A stretch of 64,000 nt of DNA from an uncultured Actinomycetes bacterium (GCA_963824865.1 CAWGQQ010000002.1:113188-177187), one strand, 5' to 3'. Shown: positions 4,444 to 22,269, numbered from the stretch's first letter. Notes: generated from the letters alone by a model not told the origin. Numbers and translations are program-made.

Positions 4444-4644
4444 ATGCCGAAGTCGAAGACGCATTCCGGCACCAAGAAGCGGTTTCGCAAGACCGCCACG
4501 GGCAAGCTGCGCGGACGGCGGGCCAACTCGAGCCACATGCTCGAGAAGAAGTCGCCAAAGCGCAAGCGGCGCATGGCCCAGCCGACCGAGGTGGCGCGCC
4601 CCGACCGCAAGCGGGTGCGCACATTGCTGGCCGGAAGGCGCTGA
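4444..4644 (+). CDS. rpmI: 50S ribosomal protein L35
   Basis: [22 protein letters not shown]..., 66 aa, canonical L35. Confidence 0.95.
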
Positions 4645-5003: not shown

Positions 5004-5032
5004 AGGCGCGACGGCTCATACCACTGGCTCCC

Positions 5033-5065
5033 GGGCGGCTCACGATGTGGACCGCCTTTTCTTTT
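5033..5065 (+). terminator. putative intrinsic terminator after rplT
   Basis: GGCGG..(loop)..CCGCC stem followed by TTTTCTTTT, one of very few T-tracts in this GC-rich window, 30 nt after the rplT stop. Confidence 0.5.
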
Positions 5066-5085
5066 ATGAGTGACGAAGGACGAAT

Positions 5086-5856
5086 GTGATCACCAGCCCC
5101 GACAACGAGAAGTTGAAACGGATCCGGAAGCTCCGCTCCCACCGCGAGCGCGAGCGCACCGGCCTGTTCGTGGTGGAGGGTGAGGACCTGGTGACGGCGG
5201 CCGAGGCCGCCGGCGCGGAGGCCGAGCTGCTCCTGGTCGCCGGAGAGGACGTTGAGCCCGGGTTGCTGGGCGCGGTGAGCACGCTGGGTTCCGGGACCCG
5301 GGTGATCGGCGTCTATCGCCAGCGCTGGTCGCAAATCCCTAGCCAAGGAGCCGCCCCCGGAGTAATCCGAGCAAGCTCGGATCATCGGTCGCCTTCGGCT
5401 CCCTGCGAGGAGGCGGCGCAATTATCCGTCTACCTCCACGGGGTCGCCGACCCGGGCAACGTCGGCACCATCGTCCGGGCCGCCCACGCGCTGTGCGACG
5501 GTCCGGTCGTGCTCGGGCCGGGTTGCGCCGACCCCTATTCGCCGAAGGCGGTGAGAGCCAGCATGGGATCCGTGTTCGCCCGCCCGCCCGCCCGGGAGGA
5601 GCTCGCCGGGTTGCACGCAACGAAGCTGGCGCTGGATGGCGGGGCGGAGACCCCGCTGGGCGAGCTGGAGGTACAGCCACCGGTCGTGATCTGCCTTGGA
5701 GCCGAGCGCCATGGCCTGCCCAGCGAGCTGTCGGCGGAGGTTGACGCCCGAGTCCGGATCCCGATGCGGCCCGACGGCCCTGACTCGCTCAATGTGGCGA
5801 TGGCCGCCACCGTGGCGCTGTATGAGCTGGGTCATAGGATGGCCGCTCATGCCTGA
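5086..5856 (+). CDS. TrmH/SpoU-family RNA 2'-O-methyltransferase (TsnR/RlmB-like)
   Basis: LHGVADPGNVGTIVRAAHAL.., VICLGAERHGLP.., IPM..DSLNVAMAATVALYE are SpoU methylase motifs. GAAGGA RBS lies 5 nt upstream of the GTG start. Same position as tsnR in the mycobacterial infC-rplT-pheST region. Confidence 0.85.
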   Translation: MITSPDNEKLKRIRKLRSHRERERTGLFVVEGEDLVTAAEAAGAEAELLLVAGEDVEPGLLGAVSTLGSGTRVIGVYRQRWSQIPSQGAAPGVIRASSDHRSPSAPCEEAAQLSVYLHGVADPGNVGTIVRAAHALCDGPVVLGPGCADPYSPKAVRASMGSVFARPPAREELAGLHATKLALDGGAETPLGELEVQPPVVICLGAERHGLPSELSAEVDARVRIPMRPDGPDSLNVAMAATVALYELGHRMAAHA

Positions 5857-6949
5857 CGTCCAGGGAAGAATCGCGGAGCTTCGCCGCGATGCCGAGGCGG
5901 CGATCGGCGCCGCCTCGGCCGCGGCCGAGCTGGAGGAGTTGCGGGTTCGCCACCTGGGCCGCAAGGCCGAGTTGACGCGGATCCTTCGCGGGATCGTCCA
6001 GCTCCCGGCAGAGGAGCGGGGCCCCGTGGGCACCGCGGGAAACGAGACCAGGCATGCCCTTGAGGAGTTGCTCGCAAGCCGGCGGGCGGAGCTCGAGGCC
6101 GCAGAGCTCGCAGAGGGGCTGGCCGCCGACGCGGTCGACGTGACCCTGCCGGGCACCCCGGCGGTGCCGGTCGGCTCACGCAGCCTGTTGATTCGCACCA
6201 TTCGCGAGATCGAGGACGTCTTCGTCGGGCTTGGCTACCGGGTCATGGAGGGCCCCGAGGTCGAGCTCGACTACTACAACTTCACCGCCCTGAACCACCC
6301 TCCGGGGCACCCGGCCCGACTGGCCCAGGACACCTTCTACGTCGACCCGGACAGCCTGGAGGGTGACCTTGCGCCCGGGCCCGAGGACGTGGTGCTGCGC
6401 ACCCATACCTCGCCCATGCAGGTGCGGGCGATGGAGGAGCAGGGGCCGCCGATCTTCATCGTCGTCCCCGGTCGCTGCTACCGCAGTGACCCGTTCGACG
6501 CCACGCACAGCCCCGTCTTCCACCAGGTCGAGGGCCTCGCGGTGGCGGAGGGCATCACACTCGCCGACCTCAAGGGGACCCTCGACGAGCTCGCGAGGGC
6601 GCTGTTCGGCCCCGAGCGCTCCACCCGCTTCCGTCCCGGGTTCTTCCCGTTCACGGAGCCAAGTGTGGAAGTGGACGTCTCCTGCTTTCGCTGCGGCGGC
6701 TCCGGGCAGCTGTCGGACGGCGCGCGGGACTCCGTCTGCAAGGGCACCGGCTGGATCGAGATCCTCGGCTCGGGGATGGTGGATCCGAACGTGTTCGGCT
6801 TCGTGGAGGCCAACGGCTACGACCCCGAGCGGATCCAGGGCTTCGCCTTCGGAATGGGAATCGAGCGGATCGCGATGCTCAAGCACGGCGTCCCCGACCT
6901 GCGCAAGTTCTTCGAGAATGACGTCCGAGTGCTGGAGCAGTTCCATTGA
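5849..6949 (+). CDS. pheS: phenylalanyl-tRNA synthetase alpha subunit
   Basis: Start MPDVQGRIAELRRDAE.. (ATG 5849, 8-nt overlap with the upstream gene). HPARLAQDTFY, RTHTSPMQVR and FRPGFFPFTEPS are class II motifs. Confidence 0.95.
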   Translation: MPDVQGRIAELRRDAEAAIGAASAAAELEELRVRHLGRKAELTRILRGIVQLPAEERGPVGTAGNETRHALEELLASRRAELEAAELAEGLAADAVDVTLPGTPAVPVGSRSLLIRTIREIEDVFVGLGYRVMEGPEVELDYYNFTALNHPPGHPARLAQDTFYVDPDSLEGDLAPGPEDVVLRTHTSPMQVRAMEEQGPPIFIVVPGRCYRSDPFDATHSPVFHQVEGLAVAEGITLADLKGTLDELARALFGPERSTRFRPGFFPFTEPSVEVDVSCFRCGGSGQLSDGARDSVCKGTGWIEILGSGMVDPNVFGFVEANGYDPERIQGFAFGMGIERIAMLKHGVPDLRKFFENDVRVLEQFH

Positions 6950-9410
6950 GAATCCCGTACTCATGGCTCCGCGAGTGGTGCAATCCCGGGCTGAGCGCCG
7001 AGGAGCTGGGCGAGCTCCTGGCGTTGCGGACGACCGAGGTGGAACGGATCTCCCACCTGGGGCCTCCCTCGACCGACGGCTTCGTGGTCGGAAGGGTCGC
7101 AGGGGTGGAGAAACACCCCGACGCCGACCGTCTGACCGTCTGCCGGGTGGAGACGGGCGACGCCACGCGCACGATCGTCTGTGGCGCCCCCAACGTCGCC
7201 GCCGGGCAGACCGTGGCCGTGGCGCCTCCCGGGGGCCGTGATGCCCGGAGGCGAGGCGCTCGGACGCGCCGAGCTCCGCGGCGTCACCTCCGACGGCATG
7301 ATCCTCTCGGAGGCGGAGCTCGAGATCGGCGAGGACGCGGCTGGAATCATCGTTCTCTCCGGCGACGGGCTAGCGCCTGGAACCCCCCTGGCTGACGTCC
7401 TGCCGATTCCCGAGCCCGTTCTCGAGCTCGAGGTCAACTCGAACCGCGTCGACTGCCTCGGCCTCTACGGGGTGGCGCGCGAGGTGCATGCGATCACGCG
7501 GTGCGCCGCTGGTCGAGCCACCCTGGGAGGCCGACGCGGAGGCCGCCGGCGAGGGCGATGCGGCGGACTACGCGTCGGTTACCGTCGAGGTCCCGGACCT
7601 CTGTCCCCGCTTCACCGCCCGCGTCTTCACCGATGTGACGATCGGCCCCTCACCGCTGTGGCTGAGGGCGCGGCTGGTCGCGGCCGGCCAGCGGCCGATC
7701 AACAACGTCGTGGACATCACCAACTACGTGATGCTGCTGACCGCCCAGCCGCTGCACGCGTTCGACCTCGACCGGGTCCCGGACGGCGGGTTGATCATTC
7801 GCACCGCGGCCGACGGTGAGCGCATGACCACGCTCGACGGGGTCGAGCGCGCCTTCGACGATCAGGCCGTCCTGGTCTGCGATCGCGACGGGCCCTCCGG
7901 CATCGCCGGGATCATGGGCGGCCAGGCATCCGAGGTGTCCGAGTCGACCACCCGCGTCCTGCTCGAGGCGGCGACCTGGAACGGGGTCAACATCCTGCGC
8001 ACCTCACGCAAGCTCGGCCTGCGGTCGGAGGCGTCCAACCGGTTCGAGAAACAGCTTCACCCGGAGCTGGCGATGCGCGCCCAGCGCGTCGCCTCGATGC
8101 TGATCATGGAGCTGTGCGGGGCGAAGCTCGTGCCCGGGACGATCGACGCCGCCGCGGAGATCCCGCCGCCGCGCCGGCCCCGGCTCCACGCGCACCGCGC
8201 GGAATCGCTGCTCGGGATGCGAATCGAGCCGGAGCTCTGCGCCACCTACCTGGAGCGCCTCGGCTTCGGGGTCGAGCGCGAGGGCGACGACCTGGTCGCC
8301 GAGGTGCCCGTCCACCGCCACTACGACGTCACCCGGGAGGTCGACCTGGTGGAGGAGGTGGGCCGCATTCACGGCTATGACGAGCACCTCCCAGCCACCC
8401 TGCCGCAGGCGAGAGGCCAGGGGGGGCGGCTGACGCGGGAGCAGGCTCTGCGCCGCCGCGCCGAGGACGTGATGCGGGACCTGGGCTTCGACGCCGTGGT
8501 GAACCTGAGCCTCGCCGATCCGGGCATTCCGGGACGGCTTCTACTGGGGAAAGGCGATCCGCGAGGCACGCCGATCCGCGTCTCAAACCCCCTCTCGCTC
8601 GAGCAGTCGGAGCTGCGGACCACGCTGCTCTCCTCCCTGCTCGACACGGCGCGGTACAACGCGGCCCGCGGCGCTGAGCGCGTCGCCGTGTTCGAGTCGG
8701 GGCGCGCGTACCTGCCCACGGGGAGATCGGAGGCGGGGGGCGTCCTCGGTGGGGAGTTCGCGGGTGAGCGCAGGGCGCCCGCGTTCGAGCCACACTGCAT
8801 CGCGGCCCTCGCCCTGGGCCCCCTCGCAGGCCCGAGCTGGGGGACGGAGGACCGTTCGGCCGACTTCTTCGGGCTCAAGGGCGTCCTCGAGGCGCTGGCG
8901 GCTCAGCTCGGGGCGGAGCTCGCGGTCGAGCCCGGGGCGCAGCCCTTCCTGCATCCGGGCCGGGCGGCCAGCGTGCGGCTCGGCGGCCTGGAAGCGGGAT
9001 GGCTTGGCGAGGTCCACCCGGTCGTCTGCCGCCAGTGGGACCTCGATGCGGCTGTTGGGTTCCAAATCGCGCTCGCGGAGCTGGTGGCGACATCGTCCTT
9101 CGGCCTGGAGCGCTACCAGGACGTCACCGAGTACCCGGCCGTTCTTCAGGACTTGGCGGTCGCGGTCGAGGAGGGCGTGCCGGCCGCCAGGGTACGGGAG
9201 GCGGTGGTTCGGGGCGGGGGTGAGCTGCTGCGCGGCGCCACGGTCTTCGACCTCTATCACGGCGAGCAGGTGGGAGAGGGGCGCAAGAGCCTTGCGCTGC
9301 GGCTCGAGTTCCACGCTCTCGATCGCACGCTCACCGACGCGGAGGTGGCCGAGCGCCGCGAGGCGATCAACGCCGAGCTTGCCGAGATCGGCGGGTCGCT
9401 CCGTGAGTGA
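6946..9410 (+). CDS. pheT: phenylalanyl-tRNA synthetase beta subunit, needs two +1 frame corrections (near 7222-7236 and 7495-7503)
   Basis: MRIPYSWLREWCNPGLS.. (TTG start, TTGA overlap with pheS). The product continues through three frames: ..GQTVAVA|LPGAVMPGGEALGRAELRGVTSDGMILSEAELE.. then ..YGVAREVHAIT|GAPLVEPPWEAD.. (ORFs 6946..7395, 7181..7819, 7488..9410). Confidence 0.9.
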
Positions 9411-10400
9411 CGTGCGCGTGTTGGTCGCCGGCGCGTCGGGCTATGCCGGTGCGCTCGCCGCGGCGCTCGTGTGGAGGCACCCCCGCCTCGAGCTCGCGGC
9501 TGCCACCTCGCGGGGCGAGGCCGGCACGCGGCTGGATCGCCTCTACCCGCGCCACCGCGTCCCGGTTGAGTTGGTGCAGCTCGACCTCGACCAAGCCGCC
9601 ACATGCGACGCCGCTCTGGTCGCCTATCCACACGGCGCGGCCGCGGAGCTGGTCGGCGAGCTTCGGAGGGCGGACGTGCCGGTGGTGGACATCTCCGCGG
9701 ACTTCCGTCTGCACGACCTGGCGACCTACGAGCGCACCTACGGCGATCACGGCGCGCCGGGGTTGCTGGATGAGGCGGTCTACGGGCTCACGGAGCTTCA
9801 CCGCGAGTCGATCCGCGAGGCGAAGCTGGTCGCCAACCCCGGCTGCTACCCCAGCGCCGCCCTGCTGGCGCTCGCCCCGCTGGCGGAGGCCGGGCTGGCG
9901 GAGGACGTCGTGATCAGCGCGGCGTCGGGGGTCTCGGGCGCCGGGCGGGAGGAGGGGAGCGCCTGTCGTTCGTCGCCGTGGATGAGAACTTCAGCCCCTA
10001 CGGGGTCACCGGCCACCGTCACGCTCCGGAGATCGTTCAGGAGCTCGAGGGGCTCGGCAGCTCGGCGCCGGTGTCCTTCGTTCCCCATCTGTTGCCTCTC
10101 GACCAGGGCCTGCTGGCCAGTTGCTACGTCCGCCTGGCCCGGGACCTGGGGGAGGAGGAGCTCAGGTCGCTGTACGAGGAGCGCTATGCCGGCGAGCGGT
10201 TCGTGGAGCTGGTCGACGAGCCGCCCGGGGTTCGCGACGTGCGCGACACGAACCTCTGCCGAGTCCACGTCACGCTCGACGAGGCCGGCCGGGCCCTTGC
10301 CTTCGCCGCAATCGACAATCTCTGGAAGGGGGCGGCAGGGCAGGCGATCCAGAACCTGAACCTGATGCTCGGGTTGCCGGAGACGGAGGGCCTCGAGTGA
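9403..10400 (+). CDS. argC: N-acetyl-gamma-glutamyl-phosphate reductase, one apparent frameshift near 9950-9960
   Basis: VSDVRVLVAGASGYAG.., NPGCYPSAALLAL.. in frame 1, then ERLSFVAVDENFSPYGVTGHRHAPEI.. in ORF 9978..10400. The break lies in a G run. The GTG start overlaps the pheT stop. Confidence 0.9.
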
Positions 10401-11549
10401 CCTTCTTCCGTTCTCGCTGGGTGCACGCGCCGGCAGGCGCGGAGGAGCTCGATCCCGCAGGGCTGGCGCCGGGGTTCAGGGCGGCGGGCGTTGCCTGCGG
10501 CCTGAAGCACGGCGGCAGCACCGACCTGGGCCTGCTCGTCTGCGACGCCGAGGTGGTCGGCTCCGCTCTGCTTTTGACCCGCAACGCCGCCGCCGCGGCG
10601 CCGGTGCGGGTCTGCAGGGAGCAATGCGACCGCGGCTCGATCCGGGCAGCGGTGGTCAACTCGGGGAACGCGAACGCGGCGGTCGGCGAGCGTGGCTACC
10701 GCGACGCCCTGGAGATGCGCGGCGCCGCTGCGCAGGCGCTTGGTCTGGATGCCGGCTCGGTGGCGATCGCCGAGACCGGCCCGATCGGGGTTCCGCTGGC
10801 AATGGAATCCGTCCGGCGCGGCGTGGCCGAGGCGGCCGGCGCCCTGTCAGCGCGCGGCGGCGAGGACTTCGCATCGGCGATCATGACGACCGACCGCGGC
10901 CCGAAGCGCTGCACGGTTCGAGCCGACGGCGTCACCGTCTCCGCCCAGGCCAAGGGCGCCGGGATGATCGAGCCGGGCTTCGCGACCATGCTGTGCTTCA
11001 TCCAGACCGACGCTCACCTGCCCGATCCGGACCCGACCCTGCGCGCCGCGGTCGCCGACTCATTCGAGCGGATCACCGTCGACGGGCAGATGAGCACCAA
11101 CGACACGGTGCTGCTCCAGGCGACGGGGTGCATCCGGCCGGCCCCTGCCCGCCGGGCTCCTGGACGCCGTCCTGCTCCAGCTCGCGCTCGAGATCGTGGC
11201 TGACGGGGAAGGAGCGACACGGGTGGGCCGGATCGAGGTCACCGGAGGTGCCTCGCCCGAGGAGGCGGAGCGCGTGGCGCGGGCGATCGCCAACTCGCCG
11301 CTGGTCAAGACCGCCGTCTACGGCCGTGACCCCAACTGGGGTCGAATCGCCCAGGCCGCCGGCATGGCCCTGGTGGGCGTCGAACTGCCGGAGCTCGGCC
11401 CGGACGAGGTCGAGGCCGCCGAGCTCGGCTCGGAAACAACCGAGGCCGAGATCGGGCTCCGCCTCGATCGCGGCGACGGCAAGGCCCGAATCTACTTCTC
11501 CGACCTCACGCCGGACTACGTTGCGCTGAACTCGGAGTACGCGACGTGA
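10397..11549 (+). CDS. argJ: bifunctional ornithine acetyltransferase / N-acetylglutamate synthase, one apparent frameshift near 11121-11130
   Basis: ..VNSGNANA.., KGAGMIEPGFATMLCFIQTDA (autocleavage ATML site), then ..ASGRPLPAGLLDAVLLQLALEIVADGEGATR.. in ORF 11196..11549. GTGA overlap with argC. Confidence 0.9.
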
Positions 11550-12404
11550 GCGAGCGACGCGCGCCCGGCGACAACGTCCGCACGCCTGCTCGAGGCGCTC
11601 CCGTACATCAGGGAGTTCCACGGCCGCACCGTGGTGATCAAGTACGGGGGCGCCGCGATGCGCGACGAGGAACTCCGCGAGGGCTTCGCGACGGACGTGG
11701 TGCTGCTCAAGTACGTCGGCCTGAACCCGGTGATCGTCCACGGCGGGGGGCCGGACATCACCACCTACATGGAGCGGCTGGGAATGGAGGTCCGGTTCGT
11801 CGAGGGGGTGCGCGTCTCCGATCCCGAGACGGTGGAGGTGGCGAAGATGGTCCTGCTCGGCAAGGTCAACTCCGACATCGTCAGCCGGCTCAACCGGCAT
11901 GGGCAGCCCGCGGTGGGGCTATCGGGCGAGGACGGGACGCTGTTCGTGGTCCGCCCGCATCCCAACGCGGACCAGGTCGGCTTCGTCGGCGAGGTGGAGC
12001 GCGTCGACGTCGATGTCCTCAACCACATCGCGGGCGACTACATCCCGGTGATCGCCTCCGCCGGCACCGACCGCGAGGGAAACTCCTACAACGTCAACGC
12101 CGACACGGCCGCAGGCAAGGTCGCCGCGGCTCTGCGCGCCTACAAGGCGATCTTCCTGACCGACGTTCGCGGCTGGCTCGCGGACCCCGGCGACCCCGGC
12201 TCGCTCGTCTCTCGCGCCACCGTCAGCGAGGTGGGTGCCGCGCTCGGTGGGGTCGAGGGTGGCATGGGGCCGAAGCTCGGGGCCTGTATCGAGGCGATCG
12301 GCGGCGGCGTGCAGTCCGCGCACATCATCGACGGCTCCAAGCCCCACTCCCTGCTGCTGGAGCTGTTCACCGATGCGGGGATCGGGACGATGGTGACGCC
12401 ATGA
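11546..12404 (+). CDS. argB: acetylglutamate kinase; N-terminal codons probably disturbed by a frameshift near 11560-11585
   Basis: ..ARLLEALPYIREFHGRTVVIKYGGAAM.., HGGGPDI.., NVNADTAAG... The conserved LLEALPYI segment is in frame with ORF 11631..12404 but has no start codon. A GTG at 11546 (GTGA overlap with argJ) lies in another frame. Confidence 0.88.
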
Positions 12405-13577
12405 CCCTGGTGGAGCTGCAGGCGTTGGAGGAGCGGTATGTGATGCCCACTTATGCGCGGGCGCCGGTCGAGTTCGTGCGCGGGTCGGGGGCGCGGCTCT
12501 GGGACGTCGACGGCAAGGAGTACCTGGACTTCTTCTCCGGGCTCTCGGTCCACAACGCCGGCCACTGCCACCCGCGGATAGTCAGGGCGATCTCGGACCA
12601 GGCGGAGCGGCTGGGCGGCGCCTCCAACCTGTACTACACGGAGCCGGCGATGCGGCTGTGCGAGCGGCTGGCCGACTCGAGCCTCGAGGGAAAGGTCTTC
12701 CTCTGCAATTCGGGCGCGGAGGCGAACGAGTGCGCGATCAAGCTGGTCCGAAAGCACGCGCACGGACGCGGTGTGGCGGCTCCCGAGATCGTGGTCCTCG
12801 ACCACGCCTTCCACGGGCGGACGCTCGGCGCGCTCGCTGCCACGCCCAGGCTCGCTCGTGACGATCTCTTCGGGCCCCTGCCGCCGGGCTTCGCCGGCGT
12901 GCCCCGCGACGAGCCCGGCGCGCTCCGCGCCGCAGTCGGCGAGGACACCGCCGCCGTGATCATCGAGCCAATCCAGGGCGAGGCGGGGGTCTTCCCGATC
13001 GCCGACGAGGTGCTGACTCGCCGCGCGGGAAGCGTGTGACGCAGTGGGAGCGCTGCTCGTCCTCGACGAGGTCCAGTCCGGAATGGGGAGGACCGGATCG
13101 CTCTGGGCTTACGAGCAGGTTCCCGTTCGTCCGGACGTGATCACCGCCGCGAAGGCGCTCGGCGGAGGGCTCCCGGTGGGCGCCTGCGTGACCACGCCCC
13201 AGCTGGGCGGGGTGCTCGAACGCGGTGACCACGGCTCGACCTTCGCAGGCGCGCCGGTCGCGGCCGCGGCGGCACTCGCGGCCCTCGAGGTGATCAACGA
13301 CCCGGCGTTGCTCCGCCGCGTCCGCGAGCTGGGCGCTCGCTTGATGGAGGGACTGGCGGCGCTCGACGGCGTCGCCGAGGTTCGCGGCCGAGGCCTCATG
13401 GTCGGCGTCTCGCTGGCCGAGGGCTTGGACGCCGGCGAGGTCGCAGCGCGCGCTCTCGGCGCCGGCCTCGTCCTCAACGTCCCAGCGCCGGGCATGCTGC
13501 GATTCCTGCCGCCGCTGGTGATCGCCACGGAAGACGTCGAATCCGCGCTCGAAATCCTGCGGGATGTCCTCGCCTGA
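12401..13577 (+). CDS. argD: acetylornithine aminotransferase, one apparent frameshift near 13008-13020
   Basis: MTLVELQALEERYVMPTYARAPVEFVRGSG..NSGAEANE.. then ..LAAREACDAVGALLVLDEVQSGMGRTG..AAKALGGG.. in ORF 13044..13577. ATGA overlap with argB. Confidence 0.9.
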
Positions 13578-13947
13578 GCGACCGCCTCCGCCGCCCGACC
13601 CTCGTCGCGTCCTGGCCGAGGGGGGGCTGACGCCGAAGCCGCCGCCGCCCGACGACGGCCCGTCACGTCGCCCGACGATCGCCCTGATCCTGGTCTCCGC
13701 CCTGGCGCTGGGCCTCGGCGTCGCCGTCGCGGTGATCGTCGCGTCGGGACCTGAGAGGGAGGTCGTCACCCGTTCGACGACCATCACCAGCGTGAAGACG
13801 GTGGAGCCGACCACGACGGTCGTGACCACCGTCCCCACGACCACGACGACGGTCAAGAAGACCGTCAAGACAGAGACGGAAACGACGACCGCCACCGTCA
13901 CTGAGACGGAGCCGACGCCGAACGGGCCGCCCTCCGACAACCGGTGA
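13564..13947 (+). CDS. single-pass membrane protein, Pro-rich N-terminus and Thr/Val-rich ectodomain
   Basis: MSSPERPPPPPDP.., TM segment IALILVSALALGLGVAVAVIVA, then ..TTITSVKTVEPTTTVVTTVPTTTTTVKKTVKTETETTTATVTE... Overlaps the argD 3' end by 14 nt. Confidence 0.6.
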   Translation: MSSPERPPPPPDPRRVLAEGGLTPKPPPPDDGPSRRPTIALILVSALALGLGVAVAVIVASGPEREVVTRSTTITSVKTVEPTTTVVTTVPTTTTTVKKTVKTETETTTATVTETEPTPNGPPSDNR

Positions 13948-14021
13948 GAGACCCGCGCCCGCGAGGTCCGGCCGCGGCGCGGCATACACTCGCCCCAGTG
14001 CACGAGGATCCGACTCGTTAC

Positions 14022-14357
14022 ATGGGCCAGCCTGAGCAAGCCCCCGGCCCGCCGCCAGGCCAGCCCCCCCCGGGAGGCATGAGCCGCGGCATCAAGTGGG
14101 TGATCGCCTTGCTGGTGGCGGTCGTGATCGGCCTCGTCGCCGCGCTCGCCGTGATCGCGGCCGACAGCGGCGACACGACCACGACGACGGTCGCCCCGAC
14201 AACGAGCACGTCGACGGCCCCCACGACCACCACGACGGACCCCACGACGACCACGACGACCACGACGGACCCCACGACGACCACGACGACAGGCACGACC
14301 ACCACCACGACCACCGAAACCGGCACCGGCGGGAGTGGAGGAACGCAGTCGCCTTAA
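14022..14357 (+). CDS. single-pass membrane protein, Pro-rich N-terminus and poly-Thr ectodomain (paralogous architecture to 13564..13947)
   Basis: MGQPEQAPGPPPGQPPPGG.., TM segment WVIALLVAVVIGLVAALAVIAA, then DTTTTTVAPTTSTSTAPTTTTTDPTTTTTTTTDPTTTTTTGTTTTTTTE... The ORF track opens at 13944; ATG 14022 is the more plausible start. Confidence 0.6.
   Translation: MGQPEQAPGPPPGQPPPGGMSRGIKWVIALLVAVVIGLVAALAVIAADSGDTTTTTVAPTTSTSTAPTTTTTDPTTTTTTTTDPTTTTTTGTTTTTTTETGTGGSGGTQSP
14231..14290. repeat. perfect 2 x 30 bp tandem duplication inside a longer ACG/ACC-rich tract (about 14175-14320)
   Basis: cacgacggaccccacgacgaccacgacgac occurs twice back to back (14231-14260 and 14261-14290), encoding TTDPTTTTTT twice. 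Confidence 0.85.
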
Positions 14358-14367
14358 ACGTCAGCGC

Positions 14368-15576
14368 GTGCGGATCCTCGTCCTTACCCAGTATTTCACC
14401 CCGGAGATCACCTCCGCAGCGGTGCGGTTGCACCCGCTCGCGGCGGGACTGGCCGAGCGAGGGCACGACGTAGAGGTCATCTGCGAGGTCCCCAACCATC
14501 CGGGCGGCATCGTCGAGCCCGAGTACCGCGGAAACCTCGTTCAGCGGCGCGCCCTCGACGGCTTCGACGTCTCGTACGTCTGGGTACGGGCACGCCCGTC
14601 GAAGGGCGCCTTGAACCGAATCGCGTCGTACGGGTCCTACGCGCTGATGGCGTCCGCGGTCGGCTCCGTGCGCGCGCGGCCCGACGTGGTGTTCGCGTCC
14701 TCGCCGCCGCTCTCGGTAGGCGCGGCCGCTGCCGTGGCGGCGGCGCGGCACAGAGTGCCGTGGGTCTTCGACGTGCGCGACATATGGCCGGACGTCGCGG
14801 TGACGCTGGGCGAGCTGAGCAATCGGCGCGTGATCGCGCTCACCTCGAGGCTCGAGCGCCGCCTGTATCGCAGCGCAACCCGGATCGTCACGGTCACCGA
14901 GCCGTTCCGCGCCGACATCGCGGCCAGGGTCGCGGATCCTTCAAAGGTCGAGCTGATCCCGAACGGGACCACCCGCGCCTGGCTCGACGCCGGCGCGCAA
15001 GCGATCGACCGCGCTGGTGCGGGCCTGCCGGAAGGGCGCTTCGTGTGGGCGTACGCGGGCAACCTCGGGCTCTCGCACGGTCTCGAAGTGGCGATCGAGG
15101 CGGCGAGGCGCCTCGGCGAGGGATTCCAGCTGCTCGTGATCGGCGATGGTCCCCGGCGCCGGTTTCTGGAGGAGGAGGCCGCCGACCTCGCGCCGGGGAC
15201 CGTTGCCTTCCGGCCGACGATGGATCCGCGCGAGCTGGCCGGGGTCCTGCGGGCGTGCGACGCGCTGCTCGTCAGTCAACGCGCCGACCTCCCCAAGGTC
15301 GTCTCCTCGAAGCTCTTCGACTGCTGCGCGCTCGGCCGTCCCGTGATCTCGGTCGCGGAGGGGGAGATGCAGCGGCTGGTCAGCGATGCGGGCGCTGCGC
15401 TGACGGTACCGGCGGGGGATCCGGGCGCCCTCGCCGCGGCGGTGGAGCGGCTGCGCGATGACGACTCGCTTGGCGCTCGCCTCGCGCATGGGGGCCGGGA
15501 CTTCGCCGCTGCATACCTACGCGAGGACCACGCCGTGCGCCTGGCCCGCCTGCTCGAGTCCGCGGCGGGCAGCTAG
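14368..15576 (+). CDS. GT4-family glycosyltransferase (WbuB-like)
   Basis: VRILVLTQYFTPEITSAAVRLHPLA..L..RGHDVEVI.., C-terminal ..LLVSQ...SSKLFDCCALGRPVI... The ORF track opens at 14335; GTG 14368 gives the usual MRILVL-type start. Confidence 0.85.
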   Translation: MRILVLTQYFTPEITSAAVRLHPLAAGLAERGHDVEVICEVPNHPGGIVEPEYRGNLVQRRALDGFDVSYVWVRARPSKGALNRIASYGSYALMASAVGSVRARPDVVFASSPPLSVGAAAAVAAARHRVPWVFDVRDIWPDVAVTLGELSNRRVIALTSRLERRLYRSATRIVTVTEPFRADIAARVADPSKVELIPNGTTRAWLDAGAQAIDRAGAGLPEGRFVWAYAGNLGLSHGLEVAIEAARRLGEGFQLLVIGDGPRRRFLEEEAADLAPGTVAFRPTMDPRELAGVLRACDALLVSQRADLPKVVSSKLFDCCALGRPVISVAEGEMQRLVSDAGAALTVPAGDPGALAAAVERLRDDDSLGARLAHGGRDFAAAYLREDHAVRLARLLESAAGS

Positions 15577-15626
15577 CCCGGGGCTTGGGGGGCCTTAAAG
15601 GCGGGCTGACGTACCCTCCGACGAGG

Positions 15627-16451
15627 ATGAGGACGAGCGTGCTTGCCTATCACGACGTGATCGGCGTCGGCGCGAACCCCGACACGAGCGGCTTTCGGGG
15701 GCCCGGGCCGGCTCGCTACAAGCTGGACTGGGACCAGTTCAACGCCCACCTGGATGCGATTGCCGCGGCCACCGGCCGCGCTCCCGTCGTGGCCAGCGAC
15801 TTGATCGAGGGCCGGGCGGGGGGCGACTCATGGTCGATTACCTTCGACGACGGGGGGTCGAGTTCGCTCGCGGTCGGCGAGGAGCTCGCGCGCCGGGGCT
15901 GGCGTGGGCACTTCTTCGTGGTCAGCGCGCGCGTCGGGACGCCCGGATTTCTCGACGCCGCGGGCATCCGGGCGCTCACCGGCATGGGGCACGTGATCGG
16001 TACCCACTCGGCCTCGCATCCCGTGCGCATGTCCGCCCTCCCCTGGCAGGAGCTGATCGAGGAATGGACCCGGAGCGTCCGCGAGCTGACCGAGCTCGTG
16101 GGGGAGCCAGTCACGGTCGGCGCGGTGCCCGGCGGCTACTACTCGCGCCAAGTGGCGCGGGCCGCGGCGGCTGGTGGGCTGACCGCGCTCTTCACATCGG
16201 AGCCTGTCCGCGCGGTTCGGGACATCGACGGCTGCGCGGTGATCGGCCGGGCCGCGGTGCACTGCCGGACGCCCGCGGCGCGCTCGGCCGAGCTGGCCGC
16301 TGGGCGGCCGCTCCCCTGGCAGCGAGGACGACTGGCATGGGACGCCCGGAAGCTTGCGAAGTCCGTCGGGGGCGAGGCGTACCTGAAGCTGCGCGCCGCA
16401 GTGCTCGCCCGGCGCCGCCGGTCCACCGCACCGGGCAATTCAATCGAGTGA
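15627..16451 (+). CDS. polysaccharide deacetylase (CE4/NodB-like)
   Basis: VLAYHDV.., ITFDDGGSS.., IGTHSASHP.. motifs. The ORF track opens at a TTG at 15585; ATG 15627 is preferred. Confidence 0.8.
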   Translation: MRTSVLAYHDVIGVGANPDTSGFRGPGPARYKLDWDQFNAHLDAIAAATGRAPVVASDLIEGRAGGDSWSITFDDGGSSSLAVGEELARRGWRGHFFVVSARVGTPGFLDAAGIRALTGMGHVIGTHSASHPVRMSALPWQELIEEWTRSVRELTELVGEPVTVGAVPGGYYSRQVARAAAAGGLTALFTSEPVRAVRDIDGCAVIGRAAVHCRTPAARSAELAAGRPLPWQRGRLAWDARKLAKSVGGEAYLKLRAAVLARRRRSTAPGNSIE

Positions 16452-17432
16452 GCCCCCGGTGCGCAGCCGGGTGAGCATGACGCGGGCGGCCTCCCGCAGC
16501 GCGCCGAGCCCTGGCAGGCGCGACTTGCGGAAGTGGGGCACGGTGAGCTCGCGCGGACCGAACTTGCGCTTGTAGCCGCCGCCGCCGCCGAGGTCAAGGA
16601 CGGTCATCCCGCGGGCACGCCAGTCGCGGATCGCGTGCCAGAAGAGGGCCTCGTTCGGGCGAAGGTTCTGGTGGCTGCGCCAGCTTGCTCCACCCCAGAA
16701 ATACGCCGTGCCGTTCATCGCGGGGAAGATCCCGGTGGCGATGGACTCGCCCTCCGGGCTGACCGCTCGCAGGAGCAACAGACGCCCGGTGGGCTCCAGA
16801 CAGCGGATCAGCTCACGCACCCGGTCGATCCCGTAGGGCGGGCGCAGCTCCTGCTTGGCGAACACGTCCTCGAGCTGCGCGTAGTACTCGGTGGCGAACT
16901 CCTCGCCGCGCGCCTCCTCGACGGTGACGCCGACCTTGACGCCCTTGCGGATCGCCCGCCGGCAGGCGCTCGTCATGCCCGCGAAGATCGCATCCTCGTC
17001 CGGGGTGAGGTCGATCTCGAAGGTCAACCTCGGGGTGTGCTGGAAACCGAGTCCCGTGAGGTCGGCAGCCAAGAGGCGGCGGTCCTTGAGCTCCAGGTGC
17101 ATGCAGCCGAGTGACCGAAACGCGAAGCGGGGGAGCGCTGCGGCGGCCTCGCTACGGCTGACTGCATCCGGCAGGTTGAACCCCATGGAAAGGGTGGTCC
17201 AGCCGGGGAGCGGGCTGCCCAGTATGGGCACCCCGAATCGCCTCAGGGTCATGCCGGTGAAGTATCCGACGCGCTCGGCGCCGTCCGACACCGCCGCGAC
17301 GATCGGCTCGGCGCCCTGGGTGCGGGAGATGAACTCGAGCCACTCTCTGGTCTGAAAGATCACCCTGTCCTGGAACGAGTCCATCTCGTCCCAATCGCAG
17401 CGATCGAGCTCCAAGCGCTCCAAGGTCAGCAT
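16440..17432 (-). CDS. FemAB-like / GNAT-fold (lipid II:aminoacyl transferase-like) protein
   Basis: 330 aa with the two-lobed FemX-like pattern: ..FQTREWLEF.., ..MTSACRRAIRKGVK.GVTVEE.., ..AYFWGGASW..HQNLRPNEALFWHAIRDWRARG..LDLGG... Confidence 0.65.
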   Translation of the reverse strand: MLTLERLELDRCDWDEMDSFQDRVIFQTREWLEFISRTQGAEPIVAAVSDGAERVGYFTGMTLRRFGVPILGSPLPGWTTLSMGFNLPDAVSRSEAAAALPRFAFRSLGCMHLELKDRRLLAADLTGLGFQHTPRLTFEIDLTPDEDAIFAGMTSACRRAIRKGVKVGVTVEEARGEEFATEYYAQLEDVFAKQELRPPYGIDRVRELIRCLEPTGRLLLLRAVSPEGESIATGIFPAMNGTAYFWGGASWRSHQNLRPNEALFWHAIRDWRARGMTVLDLGGGGGYKRKFGPRELTVPHFRKSRLPGLGALREAARVMLTRLRTGGSLD

Positions 17433-17633
17433 TGGTCCCGATGCCGGATCCCGATCATTTCCCCGTGGCCCATTGGGGAAGGAACCATATTGCGCCGCCT
17501 CGGATTACGAACGAATGTTACGCAGGCGGATCGTCACCCTGCCCGACTCTGAGCTCTTCGGGCGCCGGCCGCAACTCTTGAGTTCCTTGGGCGTTCAACC
17601 TGTTAGAAGTACCCAATCTCGATCCCTCTAGGC

Positions 17634-18794
17634 GTGACCTCTCTAACAACAGCGGATGGTTTCGAGCAGGCGATCCATCGAATCGAATGGATCGACGACC
17701 CGGCGCGGTTCGAGGAGCTGCAGGAGCAGTGGGACCGGCTGGCGGCGGGGCAGCCGATGCCATTCGGGCGCCATGCCTGGTTCTGGGCATGGTGGAACGC
17801 CTTCGGTTCAGGGGGTGAGCTCAGCATTTGCGCGGTCTGGCGCGGTGAGCGCCTGGTGGCTGTGCTTCCGCTTTGGCGGCGAGGCGGAGCGCTGCGGGCC
17901 ATGGCGAACGTCCACACCCCGGTCTTCCAGGTGCCGGCATCCGACCACCAGGCTCGCCAAGCGGCGTTCGCGGCGGCCCTCGAGGCGGCGCCGGGAGCGC
18001 TCGAGGTCGAGGCGCTTGCCTCGACGGATTCGGCTCTTCCACTCCTCGCGAGGGGTTCCCGTGACGTTCGGCGCGTGGCGTTGACGGAATCGCTCCATAC
18101 GTCTCCCATCATCGACCTGCACGCCGACTTCAGCGCCTACATGCGACTCCATCCGAGCCGCTTCGGCAAGCTCGCGAAGCTCGGCCGCAGGATGTGGCGC
18201 GACCACGAGCCAGAGGTCGCCCTCCTCGAGGTTCCCAAGGACCTCGACTCGGAGCTCGACCGCGCCTTCGCGCTCGAGGCCGCGGGCTGGAAGGGCACAG
18301 CCGGGACGGCGATCGCCTCGGCCTCAGAGACCACCCGCTTCTACCGCTCGGTGGCCCGCGCCTATCACCGGCTCGGGGAGTTTCGGCTGTCGACGATCGC
18401 TCTCGACGGCGAGTTGGCCGCGTTCGACTTCTGCGTCGTACATTCAAAGCGCCTCTGGACGCTGAAGTGCGCCTACGATGAGCGCTTCAGACGCCTGTCG
18501 CCCGGCCTGGTGCTGCTCCTGTGGGAGGTCGAGCGCTCCTTCGAGCTCGGCCTCGAGGCGGTTGAGCTGCTCGGAGACGTCGAGGAGTACAAGCTGGCCT
18601 TCTCGACCAGCGACCGCCAGCACCTTCGATTTCGGGCCTACCGTCGGCGTCCCGGCTCCATGGCTCGATTCGCGTACCGGCGCTGGGCACGGCCGGCGCT
18701 GAGACACGGCTACCGCCAGCTCTCCAGGCGTCAGGGGCGGCAGGAGACGTCCCCCCGGTCGAGCACCTCGCCTGCCACGGTCACGAACGAATAG
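17634..18794 (+). CDS. CelD/BioF2-like GNAT acyltransferase
   Basis: ..WDRLAAGQPMPFGRHAWFWAWWNAFG.., ..LEAAGWKGTAGTAI.., ..LDGELAAFDFCVVHSKRLWTLKCAYDERFRRLSPG.. resemble the cellulose-biosynthesis CelD-like family. The 3' end overlaps the convergent gene by 64 nt, so the C-terminus is uncertain. Confidence 0.65.
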   Translation: MTSLTTADGFEQAIHRIEWIDDPARFEELQEQWDRLAAGQPMPFGRHAWFWAWWNAFGSGGELSICAVWRGERLVAVLPLWRRGGALRAMANVHTPVFQVPASDHQARQAAFAAALEAAPGALEVEALASTDSALPLLARGSRDVRRVALTESLHTSPIIDLHADFSAYMRLHPSRFGKLAKLGRRMWRDHEPEVALLEVPKDLDSELDRAFALEAAGWKGTAGTAIASASETTRFYRSVARAYHRLGEFRLSTIALDGELAAFDFCVVHSKRLWTLKCAYDERFRRLSPGLVLLLWEVERSFELGLEAVELLGDVEEYKLAFSTSDRQHLRFRAYRRRPGSMARFAYRRWARPALRHGYRQLSRRQGRQETSPRSSTSPATVTNE

Positions 18795-19618
18795 TCCGCA
18801 TGCTGGGGGCGCAACTCGAGGCGCACGGCGCCGTACTGTGAGTCGTTGGAGAACCGCAGCCTGGGGTCGGACTCCTCGACACTGGTGAGCAAAGCTCCGC
18901 CGGCGCCGGAGATCAACTCGGTGATCCCGCCTCGGGGGCGAAACCGCTGCATATTGTGGTCGTGGCCGTTGAGGACGATTCGGGCATGACCCCTGACCGC
19001 GTCCCAGAGAGGGTCGACGTCCCCCTGGTCACCGTGATGGGGGCCCGCGCTGAACCGAGGTCGGTGCCAAAACGCGATGCGACAGTCCCCCCCCGCGGCG
19101 ACTTGGCCACGGAGCCACCGCAGCTGCGGAGATCCCGGCTCGTGGTCGATCTCGGAGTTCAGGCTCAGGACCTGCCACCCGGAGACTCGAAACGCGTAGT
19201 AGGGGGGCGTGGGCGCCCCCAGCGCCTCCTCCCAGTAGGGGTTGTAGCCCTGTTCGGCGAGGGGGCCGTCGTGGTTCCCCGGAGTCGGCGCGGTCAGGGC
19301 TGCGATAGCGCCGTAGGTGGGCTCGTAGTTCCTCTCGAACTCTTCGGCGGTCCCCCGGTCGTAGACGTCGCCCAGGTAGAGGAGGCGATCCGGGTCGGAA
19401 TCGGCGATCTGTTGGGCGACCGCCGCCGCTTTGGGCGTGTCCGTGCCTCCGTCGCCGACCGCCCATACGAGCGCGTCGGGGTCGCCGATCGAGGACACGA
19501 AGCCGCCTGCCTCCGGCGTGGCGGAGTCAGGCGCGTCCTCGAAGCCGACGATCAGGCTGAAGGCCGCCGCCGCCGCGACCACGACCAGACCGAGCACAAG
19601 GAGCGGTTTGACCTTCAA
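18731..19618 (-). CDS. secreted/membrane-anchored calcineurin-like metallophosphoesterase
   Basis: N-terminal hydrophobic anchor KPLLVLGLVVVAAAAAF; motifs VGDGG, LGDVYD, PGNHD, NGHDHNMQR. TTG start. Confidence 0.8.
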   Translation of the reverse strand: MKVKPLLVLGLVVVAAAAAFSLIVGFEDAPDSATPEAGGFVSSIGDPDALVWAVGDGGTDTPKAAAVAQQIADSDPDRLLYLGDVYDRGTAEEFERNYEPTYGAIAALTAPTPGNHDGPLAEQGYNPYWEEALGAPTPPYYAFRVSGWQVLSLNSEIDHEPGSPQLRWLRGQVAAGGDCRIAFWHRPRFSAGPHHGDQGDVDPLWDAVRGHARIVLNGHDHNMQRFRPRGGITELISGAGGALLTSVEESDPRLRFSNDSQYGAVRLELRPQHADYSFVTVAGEVLDRGDVSCRP

Positions 19619-19769
19619 GCGGGGGAGCCCTTTCTGGATCGCTGAGGGGCAAAGCGCGCTCTGCCCGCCTTCGAGTCAATCGTGCCGGGCGAGTATAAAC
19701 CGGCGCTAAGCCGCCACCGAGGACCTTTGGGAGCGGCTGGGCTGGGCTCGAATCGGTGGCCACCAAGAG

Positions 19770-21281
19770 ATGAATCGCGACGCTCGCAACAGCGAGTCGT
19801 CCCACGGGGGCGACACGATCAGCCGCAACGCCGTCTTCGCGTTCGCCACGCAGATGAGCACGGCTGCGTTCACGGCCGCGCTCACGATCTACCTGGTGCG
19901 GGCGCTGGGCCCAGCAGGGTATGGGACGCTCTCGCTCGCGGTGGGGGTCACAGGGGTACTGCTGCGGCCGTCCGGCGCCGGCACCAGCCACGCGGCCGGC
20001 CGGTTCGTTGCGGAGCGGTATGGCGACATGAAGGGCATCGCCGCCGTGCTCGGCATGGCATTGCCGATTCGCCTGATGACCGCAGCCAGCGTCTCGGTGG
20101 CGCTGTTCGCGCTCGCCGGACCGATTTCGGATGTCTATGACGCGCCGGAGCTGGCCTGGCCGCTCAGGGGGGTGGCGATCGCCTTCTTCGGACAGAGCAT
20201 CACGGAATTCATGCGGACCATCTTCGTTTCGCTTCGACGGACCTCCAGCGGCTTCAAGCTGATCCTCTCGGAGTCGGCGATGGAGTTCGTGGCCACCGTA
20301 GCCCTGGTCGCGTTCGGCGGGGGAGTTACGGGCGCAGCCTTCGGGAGGGCAGTGGGCTATGTGTTCGGCGCCGTCATCGGGGTGCTCCTGCTGGCCAGGC
20401 TCTTGGGCCGGTCGCCGCTCTTCGGGAGGGGCCCGAGCCCCGTCAGGCGACGGGAGTTCATGAGCTACGCCGGGGCGATGCTGATCGTGACTGGGGCGGG
20501 GTCCCTCTTCAGCTACCTCGACGTGCTGCTGATCGGTGCCTTCCTCACCACCACCGCCGTCGGTCTCTACAGCGCGCCCCTGCGCCTGATCGCGCTCGTT
20601 CAGTACCCCGCGCGGGCCCTCGCGCAGGGAGTGGCGCCGCGAATGGCTCGTCACCCCGATGACCCTCCCAACGTCGCCGCGCTTGAGCGAGCGATCGGCT
20701 ACGTCGTGATCCTCCAGGCCGGGGTGGTGGTGTTCCTGACCTTGTGGGCGGATCCCATCGTGAGTCTGTTGCTCGGGTCGGAGTTCTCGGAGTCAGCCGA
20801 GGTCCTGAGGGCGCTGGGCCCCTTCATCTTCATGACGGCGGTTGGCTCCCTGCTGACCTCGCCGCTCAACTACGCGGGCGAGGGAAGGCGGCGGATCCCA
20901 ATTTCGATCGCCACCGTGGTCTTGAACGTGGCGATCGACCTGGTCCTGATTCCGGAGATGGGCATCCTCGGCGCCGCGGTCGGAACCGACGTTGCATACG
21001 CCCTCTACGGGGGCTCTCACCTGTGGCTGTGTCACCGGCTGCTCGGCCTCCCACTGAGGCCGCTCGCGGCGACGGCCGCCCGAGCGCTCGTCGCCGCCGG
21101 GGCGATGGCCGCGGTTCTCGCACTGGTCGGCACCGGAAGCCTTTCGCCGCTCGAGTGGCTCGTCGGCCTGCCCGTCGCCGGCGCTGCCTTCGTGGCCGCT
21201 CTGCTCGCCACTCGGGCGCTGTCGCTGGGCGAGATCCGGGCAATGGTCAGATTGCTCAAAAAAACGCTTCGCCGTGGCTGA
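19770..21281 (+). CDS. MOP-superfamily polysaccharide/oligosaccharide flippase (Wzx-like)
   Basis: 503 aa, multi-pass and hydrophobic throughout (12-14 TM helices by eye). N-terminal ..ISRNAVFAFATQMSTAAFTAALTIYLVRALGPAGYG.. is typical of polysaccharide biosynthesis (Wzx) proteins. Confidence 0.8.
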   Translation: MNRDARNSESSHGGDTISRNAVFAFATQMSTAAFTAALTIYLVRALGPAGYGTLSLAVGVTGVLLRPSGAGTSHAAGRFVAERYGDMKGIAAVLGMALPIRLMTAASVSVALFALAGPISDVYDAPELAWPLRGVAIAFFGQSITEFMRTIFVSLRRTSSGFKLILSESAMEFVATVALVAFGGGVTGAAFGRAVGYVFGAVIGVLLLARLLGRSPLFGRGPSPVRRREFMSYAGAMLIVTGAGSLFSYLDVLLIGAFLTTTAVGLYSAPLRLIALVQYPARALAQGVAPRMARHPDDPPNVAALERAIGYVVILQAGVVVFLTLWADPIVSLLLGSEFSESAEVLRALGPFIFMTAVGSLLTSPLNYAGEGRRRIPISIATVVLNVAIDLVLIPEMGILGAAVGTDVAYALYGGSHLWLCHRLLGLPLRPLAATAARALVAAGAMAAVLALVGTGSLSPLEWLVGLPVAGAAFVAALLATRALSLGEIRAMVRLLKKTLRRG

Positions 21282-21305
21282 CGCGTCAACTACCCTGGTC
21301 GGCTG

Positions 21306-22254: not shown

Positions 22255-22269
22255 CGACGCGTAACCGTC

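Follow-up and report, generated by a model that had tools for sequence, protein, structure and literature searches.

Two small genes, called T1 and T2, lie side by side downstream of argD in a stretch of 64,000 nucleotides from an uncultured Actinomycetes bacterium (GCA_963824865.1 CAWGQQ010000002.1:113188-177187). The whole stretch is referred to as the window, and coordinates are those of the window unless a related locus (L numbers) is named. Both genes encode a membrane protein made of a Pro-rich head, a single transmembrane (TM) helix and a Thr-rich tail. This architecture had been reported in the initial annotation for the two adjacent genes; the open reading frames (ORFs) were found where it had placed them, on the plus strand, and the peptide quoted in it matches the sequence exactly.

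According to Pfam and NCBIfam matches, the left flank reads thrS, infC, rplT, SpoU methylase, pheS, pheT, argC, argJ, argB, argD, and T1 and T2 follow. argD (12401-13577, +), which closes argCJBD, encodes acetylornithine aminotransferase. A 1-nt insertion near 13016 splits the gene; the frame changes at 13015/13017 in a tblastn comparison with the intact argD of locus L001, and the extra base is absent both in L001 and in a short-read soil contig. T1 (13564-13947, +) encodes 127 aa, and begins with an ATG in the final stretch of argD, so that the two genes share 14 nt, the argD stop among them. The longest ORF containing T2 starts at 13944, but T2 is best read as 13998-14357 (+), a product of 119 aa initiated at GTG 13998, because the start peptide M/V-HEDPTR-Y/H-M, with ATG or GTG at the corresponding position, is kept in 10 loci with synonymous differences. 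Next comes a GT4 glycosyltransferase gene of the WcaI-like type (14368-15576, +; Pfam and NCBIfam, start set from the L001 ortholog), the first gene of a polysaccharide island. If the probable start GTG 14368 is used, T2 and GT4 are separated by 10 nt. The T genes are packed operon-style between argD and a GT4/CE4 deacetylase pair, and the initial description of them as co-directional with, and upstream of, the two glycan genes is correct. The argD/T1, T1/T2 and T2/GT4 junctions are each spanned by short-read contigs from four soil metagenomes. A promoter and terminator scan of 11000-17500 revealed nothing beyond shuffle expectation, and no site dividing argD, T1, T2 and GT4.

The T1 head measures ~38 aa, is Pro-rich, and carries the conserved cytoplasmic motif PPPPPDPRRVL (13582-13614, +). 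The TM helix spans residues 39-60 (13678-13743, +; Kyte-Doolittle 2.87); AlphaFold2 (AF2) places it at residues 36-60, and its ALALGLGVA core is conserved. The extracytoplasmic tail (13744-13944, +) is rich in Thr, Val and Glu, and 25 of its 67 residues are Thr (37%). T2 similarly features a Pro-rich cytoplasmic head (30-38 aa in the two proteins), a TM helix at residues 34-55 (14097-14162, +; Kyte-Doolittle 3.29) conserved in the alignment, a poly-Thr spacer of variable length (14163-14327, +), and the C-terminal end GGSGGTQSP (14328-14354, +), which corresponds to the family consensus GSGG[TIV]xxP-COOH. Thr accounts for 38/62 residues of the T2 tail (61%). The spacer holds a 30-nt tandem repeat (14221-14314; 3.1 copies, 89% match, Tandem Repeats Finder), and variants differing by 3 nt in length occur in soil contigs. 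Thr makes up 4.4% of the 18,017 residues encoded by the other window genes; by the binomial tail, the enrichment over whole proteins is 1e-11 for T1 and 2e-24 for T2, and no in-frame Thr-rich coding stretches other than T1 and T2 were found in the 64 kb. Antisense poly-Val ORFs (14018-14326, and others) were discarded as shadows of the Thr codons. GC content at third codon positions (0.89 in T1, 0.85-0.88 in T2) resembles that of core genes. In both proteins basic residues flank the helix at the N-terminal side, and acidic residues at the C-terminal side, predicting an N-in/C-out topology.

No Pfam or NCBIfam model matches T1 or T2 at cut-off, and an exact-match look-up with T1 gave no match. 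A single-sequence search with T2 identified 2 relatives only; such a search is weak because the protein is of low complexity, and an alignment profile is needed. With profiles, 60 proteins were retrieved for T1 at E <= 1e-3 among 1.84 billion representatives, and 134 relatives for T2 among 5.8 billion clusters. Named sources are all Solirubrobacterales, Thermoleophilia or soil, the few named organisms being Solirubrobacterales metagenome-assembled genomes (MAGs). Relatives of the GT4 protein likewise put the window in Solirubrobacterales/Thermoleophilia, Actinomycetota, and the window sequence itself was found in soil, permafrost and freshwater metagenomes. As judged from these searches, the T family is undescribed, small, and confined to Solirubrobacterales-like soil Actinomycetota. 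Though undescribed, it is of a familiar kind, that of small bitopic envelope proteins with mucin-like spacers.

T proteins measure 84-140 aa. T2-type members, the core of the family, share the motif M(H/S)(E/D)DPTRxM, a G/P/Q-rich stretch, GM(S/G)xGxK, and then a TM helix with a GLGVALAVIA core. Beyond the helix, an acidic Thr/Ser-rich spacer of ~40-70 residues, variable in Thr, Ser and Glu, leads to the C-terminal GSGG(T/I/V)xxP, which is kept irrespective of the downstream gene. A short T2 class (83-88 aa) is devoid of the long head, and the poly-Pro run is missing from many T2-type members. T1-type proteins share PPPPPDPRRVL, the TM helix ALALGLGVAVAVIVA, and a tail in which individual positions are conserved: P82-T83-T84 is invariant (PTTT), and T105/107/109/111 are nearly so (alternating TxTxTxT). 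TM and N-terminal motifs are conserved across 10 loci. In the T1 motif, 7-9 of the 11 codons show synonymous differences in the comparisons with L023, L024 and L039, and none a non-synonymous one. By these sequence criteria T1 and T2 are real genes, under purifying selection on the head, the TM helix and the C-terminal end.

T1 and T2 are paralogs, 38% identical to each other; T1 homologs reach 57-65% identity. T1 is a tandem duplicate that has diverged, and only loci of the sub-clade nearest to the window carry it; their argD genes are 80-90% identical to that of the window. Two tandem T2-type genes reside also in L052 (5766-6470), and the product of the second combines a T2 head (MHEDPTRRM) with a T1-like TETETETxTE tail; the same combination is found in protein P0027. 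The two look like T1/T2 intermediates, and tandem duplication is recurrent in the family.

Several weak similarities were set aside as compositional. The name RodZ, automatically given by JGI to several T2 relatives, was rejected because T1 and T2 have no helix-turn-helix (HTH) or other Pfam domain. The match to the SCO2584 family NF052259 (22.9 bits, cut-off 80) covers the TM and low-complexity part only, and that to the membrane anti-sigma factor NF052375 scores 19.2 against a cut-off of 100, with no sigma-factor gene adjoining. The same holds for the remaining weak NCBIfam (GltJ, SAG1386) and Pfam (Mucin, New_glue) matches. Among proteins retrieved by the profiles, P0025, P0031 and P0043, which are longer, are over-extended ORF calls in high-GC DNA, and P0050 and P0065 match by composition only.

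The regularities of the T1 tail allow for a different structure. If left unglycosylated, the T1 ectodomain, with its PTTT and TxTxT/TETVTE patterns, might be a beta-structure binding a protein or the wall, perhaps pairing with T2, whose spacer would be a flexible linker. The conservation of the T1 tail is position-specific, beyond what composition would impose, and three long strands are seen at residues 65-113 in the AF2 model. In the relative P0013, encoded by a JGI contig of 1472 bp, the T1 head (PPPPPDPRRVL), a TM helix and a short Thr stretch lead into an RCC1/WD40-like domain with Cys (PF25390), the Thr stretch linking them to a folded ectodomain. The strands however have pLDDT values of ~50-55, and the strand prediction is not trusted. 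The T2 tail is 61% Thr and varies in tandem-repeat length, as is typical of mucin-like spacers, and S/T-rich exported segments in Actinomycetota are commonly O-mannosylated (PMC11727336). A structured, unglycosylated tail is regarded as unlikely.

The T family has a fixed residence. Among loci whose sequence extends upstream, nearly all have their T genes <=5.5 kb downstream of argD; argD-linked loci are the window, L005, L014, L019, L023, L024, L036-L040, L043, L044, L047, L051-L056 and L058-L063. Six lineages carry T genes and no polysaccharide island at the argD-argG site. The gene order is argD-T2-argG-Rpf-dnaE in L051, and argD-GT2-T2-sortase(-)-argG in L037. L052 is organized as argD-T2-T2'-two coiled-coil genes-sortase(-)-argG. 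L055 and L061 feature a gene for a 144-145 aa coiled-coil protein, T2 and argG, with the end of T2 touching the argG start or no more than 3 nt from it. L058-60 feature argD-T-sortase(-)-argG, the T protein measuring 84 aa; this 84-aa protein was found in 41 blocks of the collection. No Wzy_C, polyprenyl-phosphate glycosylphosphotransferase (PGT) or Wzx genes were found in the whole argD-dnaE interval of L037, L051, L055, L058 and L061. Where islands are present, they lie downstream of the T genes, and their content is lineage-specific: sulfotransferases in L036, methyltransferases and GHL15 in L038, PEP mutase in L053, JmjC/GNAT/GT4/Wzz in L056. Since the family sits in the arg block also in lineages devoid of the island, the synteny is most simply read as T2 residing in the argCJBD...argG block, with the island as a variable segment inserted between T2 and sortase/argG. 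T genes are found at the head of the island because of the place where the island is inserted. The initial annotation had tied them to the glycan locus and proposed co-occurrence in other genomes as a check; the family turned out to follow argD.

GT2 genes adjoining T2 in L037 (weakly similar to polyprenyl-phosphate-sugar synthases) and in L043/L044 (generic) are not orthologous, and were not used as evidence. The coiled-coil proteins of the island-free loci share a conserved C-terminal ATQMAVSGSSREEIE...ILD motif and belong to no Pfam family (L061 8564-8998, L055 8558-8995, L052 6810-7451, L046 1137-1955, minus strand). Homologs are encoded in L002, L027 and L030, and none in the window. The gene adjoins T2 in island-free genomes, and Wzz/BY-kinase genes in glycan loci.

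Loss of the T genes can be traced in L001, which shows 91% DNA identity with the window over 8.2 kb of flank. The alignment runs to window position 13629 and resumes at 14361. In L001 argD and GT4 are 90 bp apart. This spacer still holds the T1 start, from which 9 nt of the poly-Pro codons are missing, and 22 nt derived from the T1/T2 spacer (20/22 identical); both T gene bodies are gone. The contig ends at the equivalent of 18175, and only the island start is covered. L001, the closest relative, has lost both T genes and kept argD and the island start, as far as the contig reaches. Thirty GT4-anchored loci were compared: nine have argD upstream, and 5/9 have T genes. Besides L001, three loci with argD upstream of GT4 are devoid of T genes. 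In the close relative L040, T1 and T2 are both kept, and GT4 has an internal deletion. The presence of T genes is polymorphic among close relatives.

Start and stop codons of T genes often overlap or abut those of the neighbouring arg gene. Such contacts with both argD and argG, and the strict conservation of the poly-Pro motif at the amino-acid level, would suit T genes acting mainly as regulators of the arginine operon, that is as coupled small ORFs whose PPPPPDP head or nascent peptide tunes downstream expression, the membrane role being secondary. This is highly improbable. Conservation extends to the TM helix, the tail and the C-terminal motif, which would be needless in a purely regulatory ORF; many T2-type members do without the poly-Pro run, and L001 is devoid of T genes, yet its argD and GT4 are intact.

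The order argD-T-sortase(-)-argG in L058-60, with its variants in L037 and L052, brings to mind a sortase-associated factor comparable to SafA, also a small N-in/C-out actinobacterial membrane protein (PMC9282373), or else a sortase substrate. SafA, however, measures 52 aa, features an exoplasmic FPW motif, and is encoded directly downstream of srtA on the same strand (PMC9282373). T proteins have no FPW motif, and T genes and the sortase gene are transcribed convergently; in L051, L055 and L061 no sortase gene adjoins T2, and an LPXTG/LAXTG signal is missing in T1 and T2. A role of either type is extremely improbable.

The interpretation favoured here, with moderate confidence, is that the T genes owe their location to the arg block, and that the Wzy_C protein of the island is a polymerase. 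The Thr tail would form an extended hydrophilic stalk of ~50-65 residues, holding the conserved C-terminal peptide off the membrane, within or across the wall, and the conserved cytoplasmic peptide (MHEDPTRxM in T2, PPPPPDPRRVL in T1) may dock a partner. O-glycosylation of Thr/Pro-rich exported segments is plausible in Actinomycetota. Exported S/T-rich segments in this phylum are commonly O-mannosylated, and actinobacterial GT39 enzymes, the protein mannosyltransferases (PMT), heavily mannosylate S/T-rich linkers, up to 65 hexoses having been counted on one of them (PMC11727336). PMT substrates are defined by composition and not by a sequon (PMC11727336, PMC12757957). With the predicted topology, T1 and T2 tails fit this profile, being exported, Thr-rich and Pro-containing. 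If the tails are O-glycosylated, the genes responsible are more likely to lie outside the adjacent island than within it, and the likeliest enzyme would be of the stepwise, polyprenyl-phosphate-sugar-dependent PMT/GT-C type.

A number of observations weigh against one or the other part of this interpretation. The extended stalk is deduced from composition, because the AF2 model of T1, built on a 14-sequence alignment, is of low confidence (pLDDT 59). No gene for GT39/PMT or for a polyprenyl-phosphate-mannose synthase was found in the 64-kb window, and a literature search for PMT/GT39 in Solirubrobacterales found nothing. T1 was found only in loci with island genes (Fisher p = 0.012); this association is given no weight, because T1 loci form one sub-clade and phylogeny confounds the test. 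Surface-glycan genes follow the T genes in most sampled lineages, and the repeated use of an insertion site right after T2 could mean a functional link, rather than a mere hotspot. Lastly, a homolog of the second Wzy_C protein of the window, 61% identical to it, divergently adjoins T2 at ~230 bp in L046/L049, both from one soil sample.

The two Wzy_C proteins differ in context and architecture. The first (27481-28800, -) matches PF04932 alone (2e-19). Its gene is one gene away from a Wzz/BY-kinase gene (30074-31786, -; PF02706 and AAA_31, TIGR01007, TIGR03018), encoding a PCP-2-like co-polymerase, and the same island includes a Wzx flippase gene of the MOP type (19770-21281, +; Polysacc_synt and MurJ Pfam matches). 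Wzy_C and Wzz/BY-kinase genes are paired also in L002, L003, L007, L015, L022, L027 and L030. Because a Wzx and Wzz/BY-kinase context is standard for Wzy, the protein is most likely, from its gene context, the repeat-unit polymerase of the island. The second protein (45289-47442, -) features Wzy_C at residues 255-489 (PF04932, 2e-11) and C-terminal TPR repeats (TPR_16/TPR_19) at residues 628-686. In the hydropathy profile four TM helices are found past a large loop, and for this reason the TPR domain is predicted to lie outside the cell. Single-sequence AF2 modelling gave a pLDDT of 46.5, which is unusable.

The domain name alone does not tell these functions apart. Pfam Wzy_C routinely serves to mark Wzy as well as WaaL (PMC4594306), and is common to WaaL, Wzy and protein O-oligosaccharyltransferases (O-OTases), so that it cannot alone assign an O-OTase (PMC12645811). 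PglL_A (PF15864) and Wzy_C_2 (PF11846) are absent from both window proteins even at E values up to 10. The O-OTases TfpO and TfpM likewise carry neither domain, so that an O-OTase need not have them. The two domains are the signatures used for PglL/PglS (PMC3643930). The best NCBIfam match of the Wzy_C proteins is TIGR03097, a putative O-glycosylation ligase associated with exosortase A, at 84 bits against a cut-off of 188. In sequence searches of PDB, the two proteins gave no transmembrane-domain match, and generic TPR matches only.

The Wzy_C-TPR protein is the only credible O-OTase candidate in the window. The alternative built on it holds that the Thr tails of T2 and T1 are acceptors, and that Wzy_C-TPR, together with the PGT encoded at 42998-44458 (+; PF02397, TIGR03025) and the GT4 at 14368, transfers a polyprenyl-diphosphate-linked glycan en bloc, the product being a membrane-anchored surface layer similar to mucin or proteoglycan. 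T1, T2 and GT4 are spaced as in an operon, with the 10-nt gap and no terminator, and orthologs of this GT4 reside in seven PGT-GT4-Wzy_C-TPR triads of Conexibacter-like loci (L004, L006, L008, L010, L011, L012, L028), arranged as PGT(-)/GT4(+)/Wzy_C-TPR(-). Wzy_C with C-terminal TPR is the architecture reported for WsfB and PglL (PMC2943079), the TPR domain is predicted outside the cell, at the same side as the Thr tails, and the L046/L049 homolog adjoins T2; substrate genes lie near the enzyme gene in several O-OTase classes (PMC3643930; PMC12645811). In the window, however, T2 is 13 kb from the first Wzy_C gene and 31 kb from Wzy_C-TPR, and no T gene was found within 10 kb of the triads (7/7). 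T genes persist in six island-free lineages, and L001 has kept the island start without them. The PglL_A/Wzy_C_2 signature is lacking, Wzy_C domains are just as typical of polymerases (PMC4594306), and the adjacency in L046/L049 comes from one sample. En bloc transfer to the T tails is quite improbable. About as improbable is the most far-reaching version, in which Wzy_C-TPR would be a WsfB-like O-OTase of Actinomycetota loading the glycan built by PGT and GT4 en bloc on T stalks to give a membrane-anchored coat, the first lipid-linked O-glycosylation system of this type in the phylum with a dedicated acceptor family.

The description given in the initial annotation is correct; its proposal, that the Thr tails are substrates of a Wzy_C-type O-glycosylation system, gains little from the comparison of loci. 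It is weakened because T genes live in the arg block and dissociate from the island; for the island as a whole, arg-block synteny, the L001 loss, the polymerase context and the missing PglL signature all speak against it. It retains some ground for Wzy_C-TPR only, given the WsfB-like architecture, the triads, and the L046/L049 arrangement.

Around the L012 triad (3275-19601) lie genes for a homolog of asparagine synthase, a GlxA-like galactose oxidase, a beta-helix/RTX protein, sulfotransferases and an AMP-binding enzyme. The slg locus of P. alvei likewise includes a gene of the asparagine synthase type, wsfA (PMC2943079).

Several known systems resemble the locus in part. Substrates of actinobacterial PMT (GT39), such as the linkers of Cellulomonas GH6 enzymes and the mannoproteins of Streptomyces and Mycobacterium, come from the same phylum and carry, as the T tails do, low-complexity extracytoplasmic Thr-rich stretches of 50-70 residues. 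There, the stretch links folded domains, whereas in T proteins, which are very small type-II membrane proteins, it accounts for nearly all of the ectodomain. WsfB of Paenibacillus alvei and WsaB of Geobacillus, both S-layer O-OTases, and PglL are likened to Wzy_C-TPR by their domains: the WsfB/PglL domain architecture (PMC2943079) recurs in a monoderm host, with a PGT gene nearby. In contrast to the WsfB/WsaB systems, no S-layer glycoprotein gene or slg-type cluster was found, PglL_A and Wzy_C_2 are missing, and the TPR gene is 31 kb from the T genes. Bitopic actinobacterial membrane proteins in which the TM helix leads into an exoplasmic stretch rich in Thr and Pro include the SCO2584 family, involved in Streptomyces spore-wall synthesis, and the C-terminal regions of RodZ; T proteins have no HTH, and the likeness is of composition, not of homology. 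An actinobacterial precedent for a lipid-linked glycopolymer on a small surface protein, with a housekeeping sortase nearby, is GspA/LcpA/SrtA of Actinomyces oris (PMC6381275). GspA, however, is a LAXTG sortase substrate and receives its glycan from an LCP enzyme, whereas a sorting signal is lacking in T1 and T2, and an LCP gene in the window.

The island is an ordinary Wzx/Wzy-type locus. As in capsule and exopolysaccharide loci with PCP-2 proteins, Wzx, Wzy_C, Wzz-BY-kinase, GT4s, deacetylases and modifying enzymes are encoded in a variable segment between conserved flanks. Unlike in such loci, the island does not include the priming transferases, the window shows no LCP ligase, and sulfotransferases and three Acetyltransf_6 proteins are present; nor are T genes a known component of these loci.

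If the arg-block interpretation is correct, T proteins form an undescribed, order-specific family of Thr-rich stalks, oddly embedded in an arginine operon, and a hypervariable surface-polysaccharide island occupies a fixed site (T2 | sortase/argG) in abundant, poorly studied soil Actinomycetota. A fixed site would help in annotation and in interpreting the capsule diversity of MAGs. Caution is called for, since neither a glycan locus next door nor the Pfam name O-antigen ligase is by itself a sign of protein glycosylation. Should the T tails instead be loaded by Wzy_C-TPR, O-OTases of this TPR-bearing type would extend to Actinomycetota, with a simple, linked acceptor of glycoengineering interest.

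The island (14368-32948) covers ~18.5 kb between T2 and sortase/argG, and its GC content is 0.687, versus 0.713 and 0.705 in the flanks. Early genes encode GT4, a CE4 deacetylase, two Acetyltransf_6 proteins, a metallophosphoesterase, Wzx, a truncated epimerase and two sulfotransferases; later ones a second GT4, a polysaccharide lyase with RTX repeats, a second CE4, Wzy_C, a third Acetyltransf_6 protein, Wzz and BY-kinase, and a split GT4. The two sulfotransferases (22270-24120), the lyase-RTX fusion (25426-26634) and the three Acetyltransf_6 proteins, which are FemAB/CelD-like (16440-18794, 28839-30077), hint that the product is a sulfated and acylated or aminoacylated exopolysaccharide. Two genes appear as two adjacent ORFs each, the split GT4 (31751-32362 and 32376-32948) and an MFS gene of the right flank (36408-37031 and 36958-37713), and the epimerase (21655-22254) misses the first 107 profile positions. 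Together with the split argD, this looks more like indel errors in a long-read assembly than like pseudogenes.

At the right border of the island lie the genes for a class E sortase (32905-33645, -; NF033747), argG (33735-34961, +; Pfam), the right flank of the conserved block, and Rpf (35362-36399). Sortase and Rpf are in keeping with the monoderm actinomycete initially proposed, and the two Wzy_C genes, the Wzx gene and the two priming transferase genes listed at that stage were all found by Pfam and NCBIfam. Rpf is followed by the split MFS gene and by genes for an HD domain protein, a SpoIIE phosphatase, a STAS protein, a LuxR-GAF protein, a small LPFTG protein and PGT, and the latter by LuxR-PAS, Wzy_C-TPR, epimerase, dnaE and further genes. 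A conserved single-TM protein of 49-51 aa is encoded at 34958-35113 (+), its start overlapping the argG stop, as also in L058 (10331-10480) and L061 (10607-10762); it has no FPW motif, and was ruled out as a SafA.

The LPFTG protein (42595-42936, +) is a candidate sortase substrate of 113 aa, with a signal peptide, a Gly/Ser/Pro-rich mature part of ~55 aa and an LPFTG-TM-RR tail. Its gene lies 62 nt upstream of the PGT gene at 42998, on the same strand, and the glycan loci L007 (877-1128) and L030 (19654-19764) encode weak homologs. The LPFTG protein resembles the glycosylated GspA more closely than T1 or T2 do. The second priming transferase gene, of the Bac_transf type (55520-57061), is overlapped by 4 nt at its start by a GAF-GGDEF-EAL gene (both within 53538-57061), suggesting c-di-GMP-linked control of a glycan pathway.

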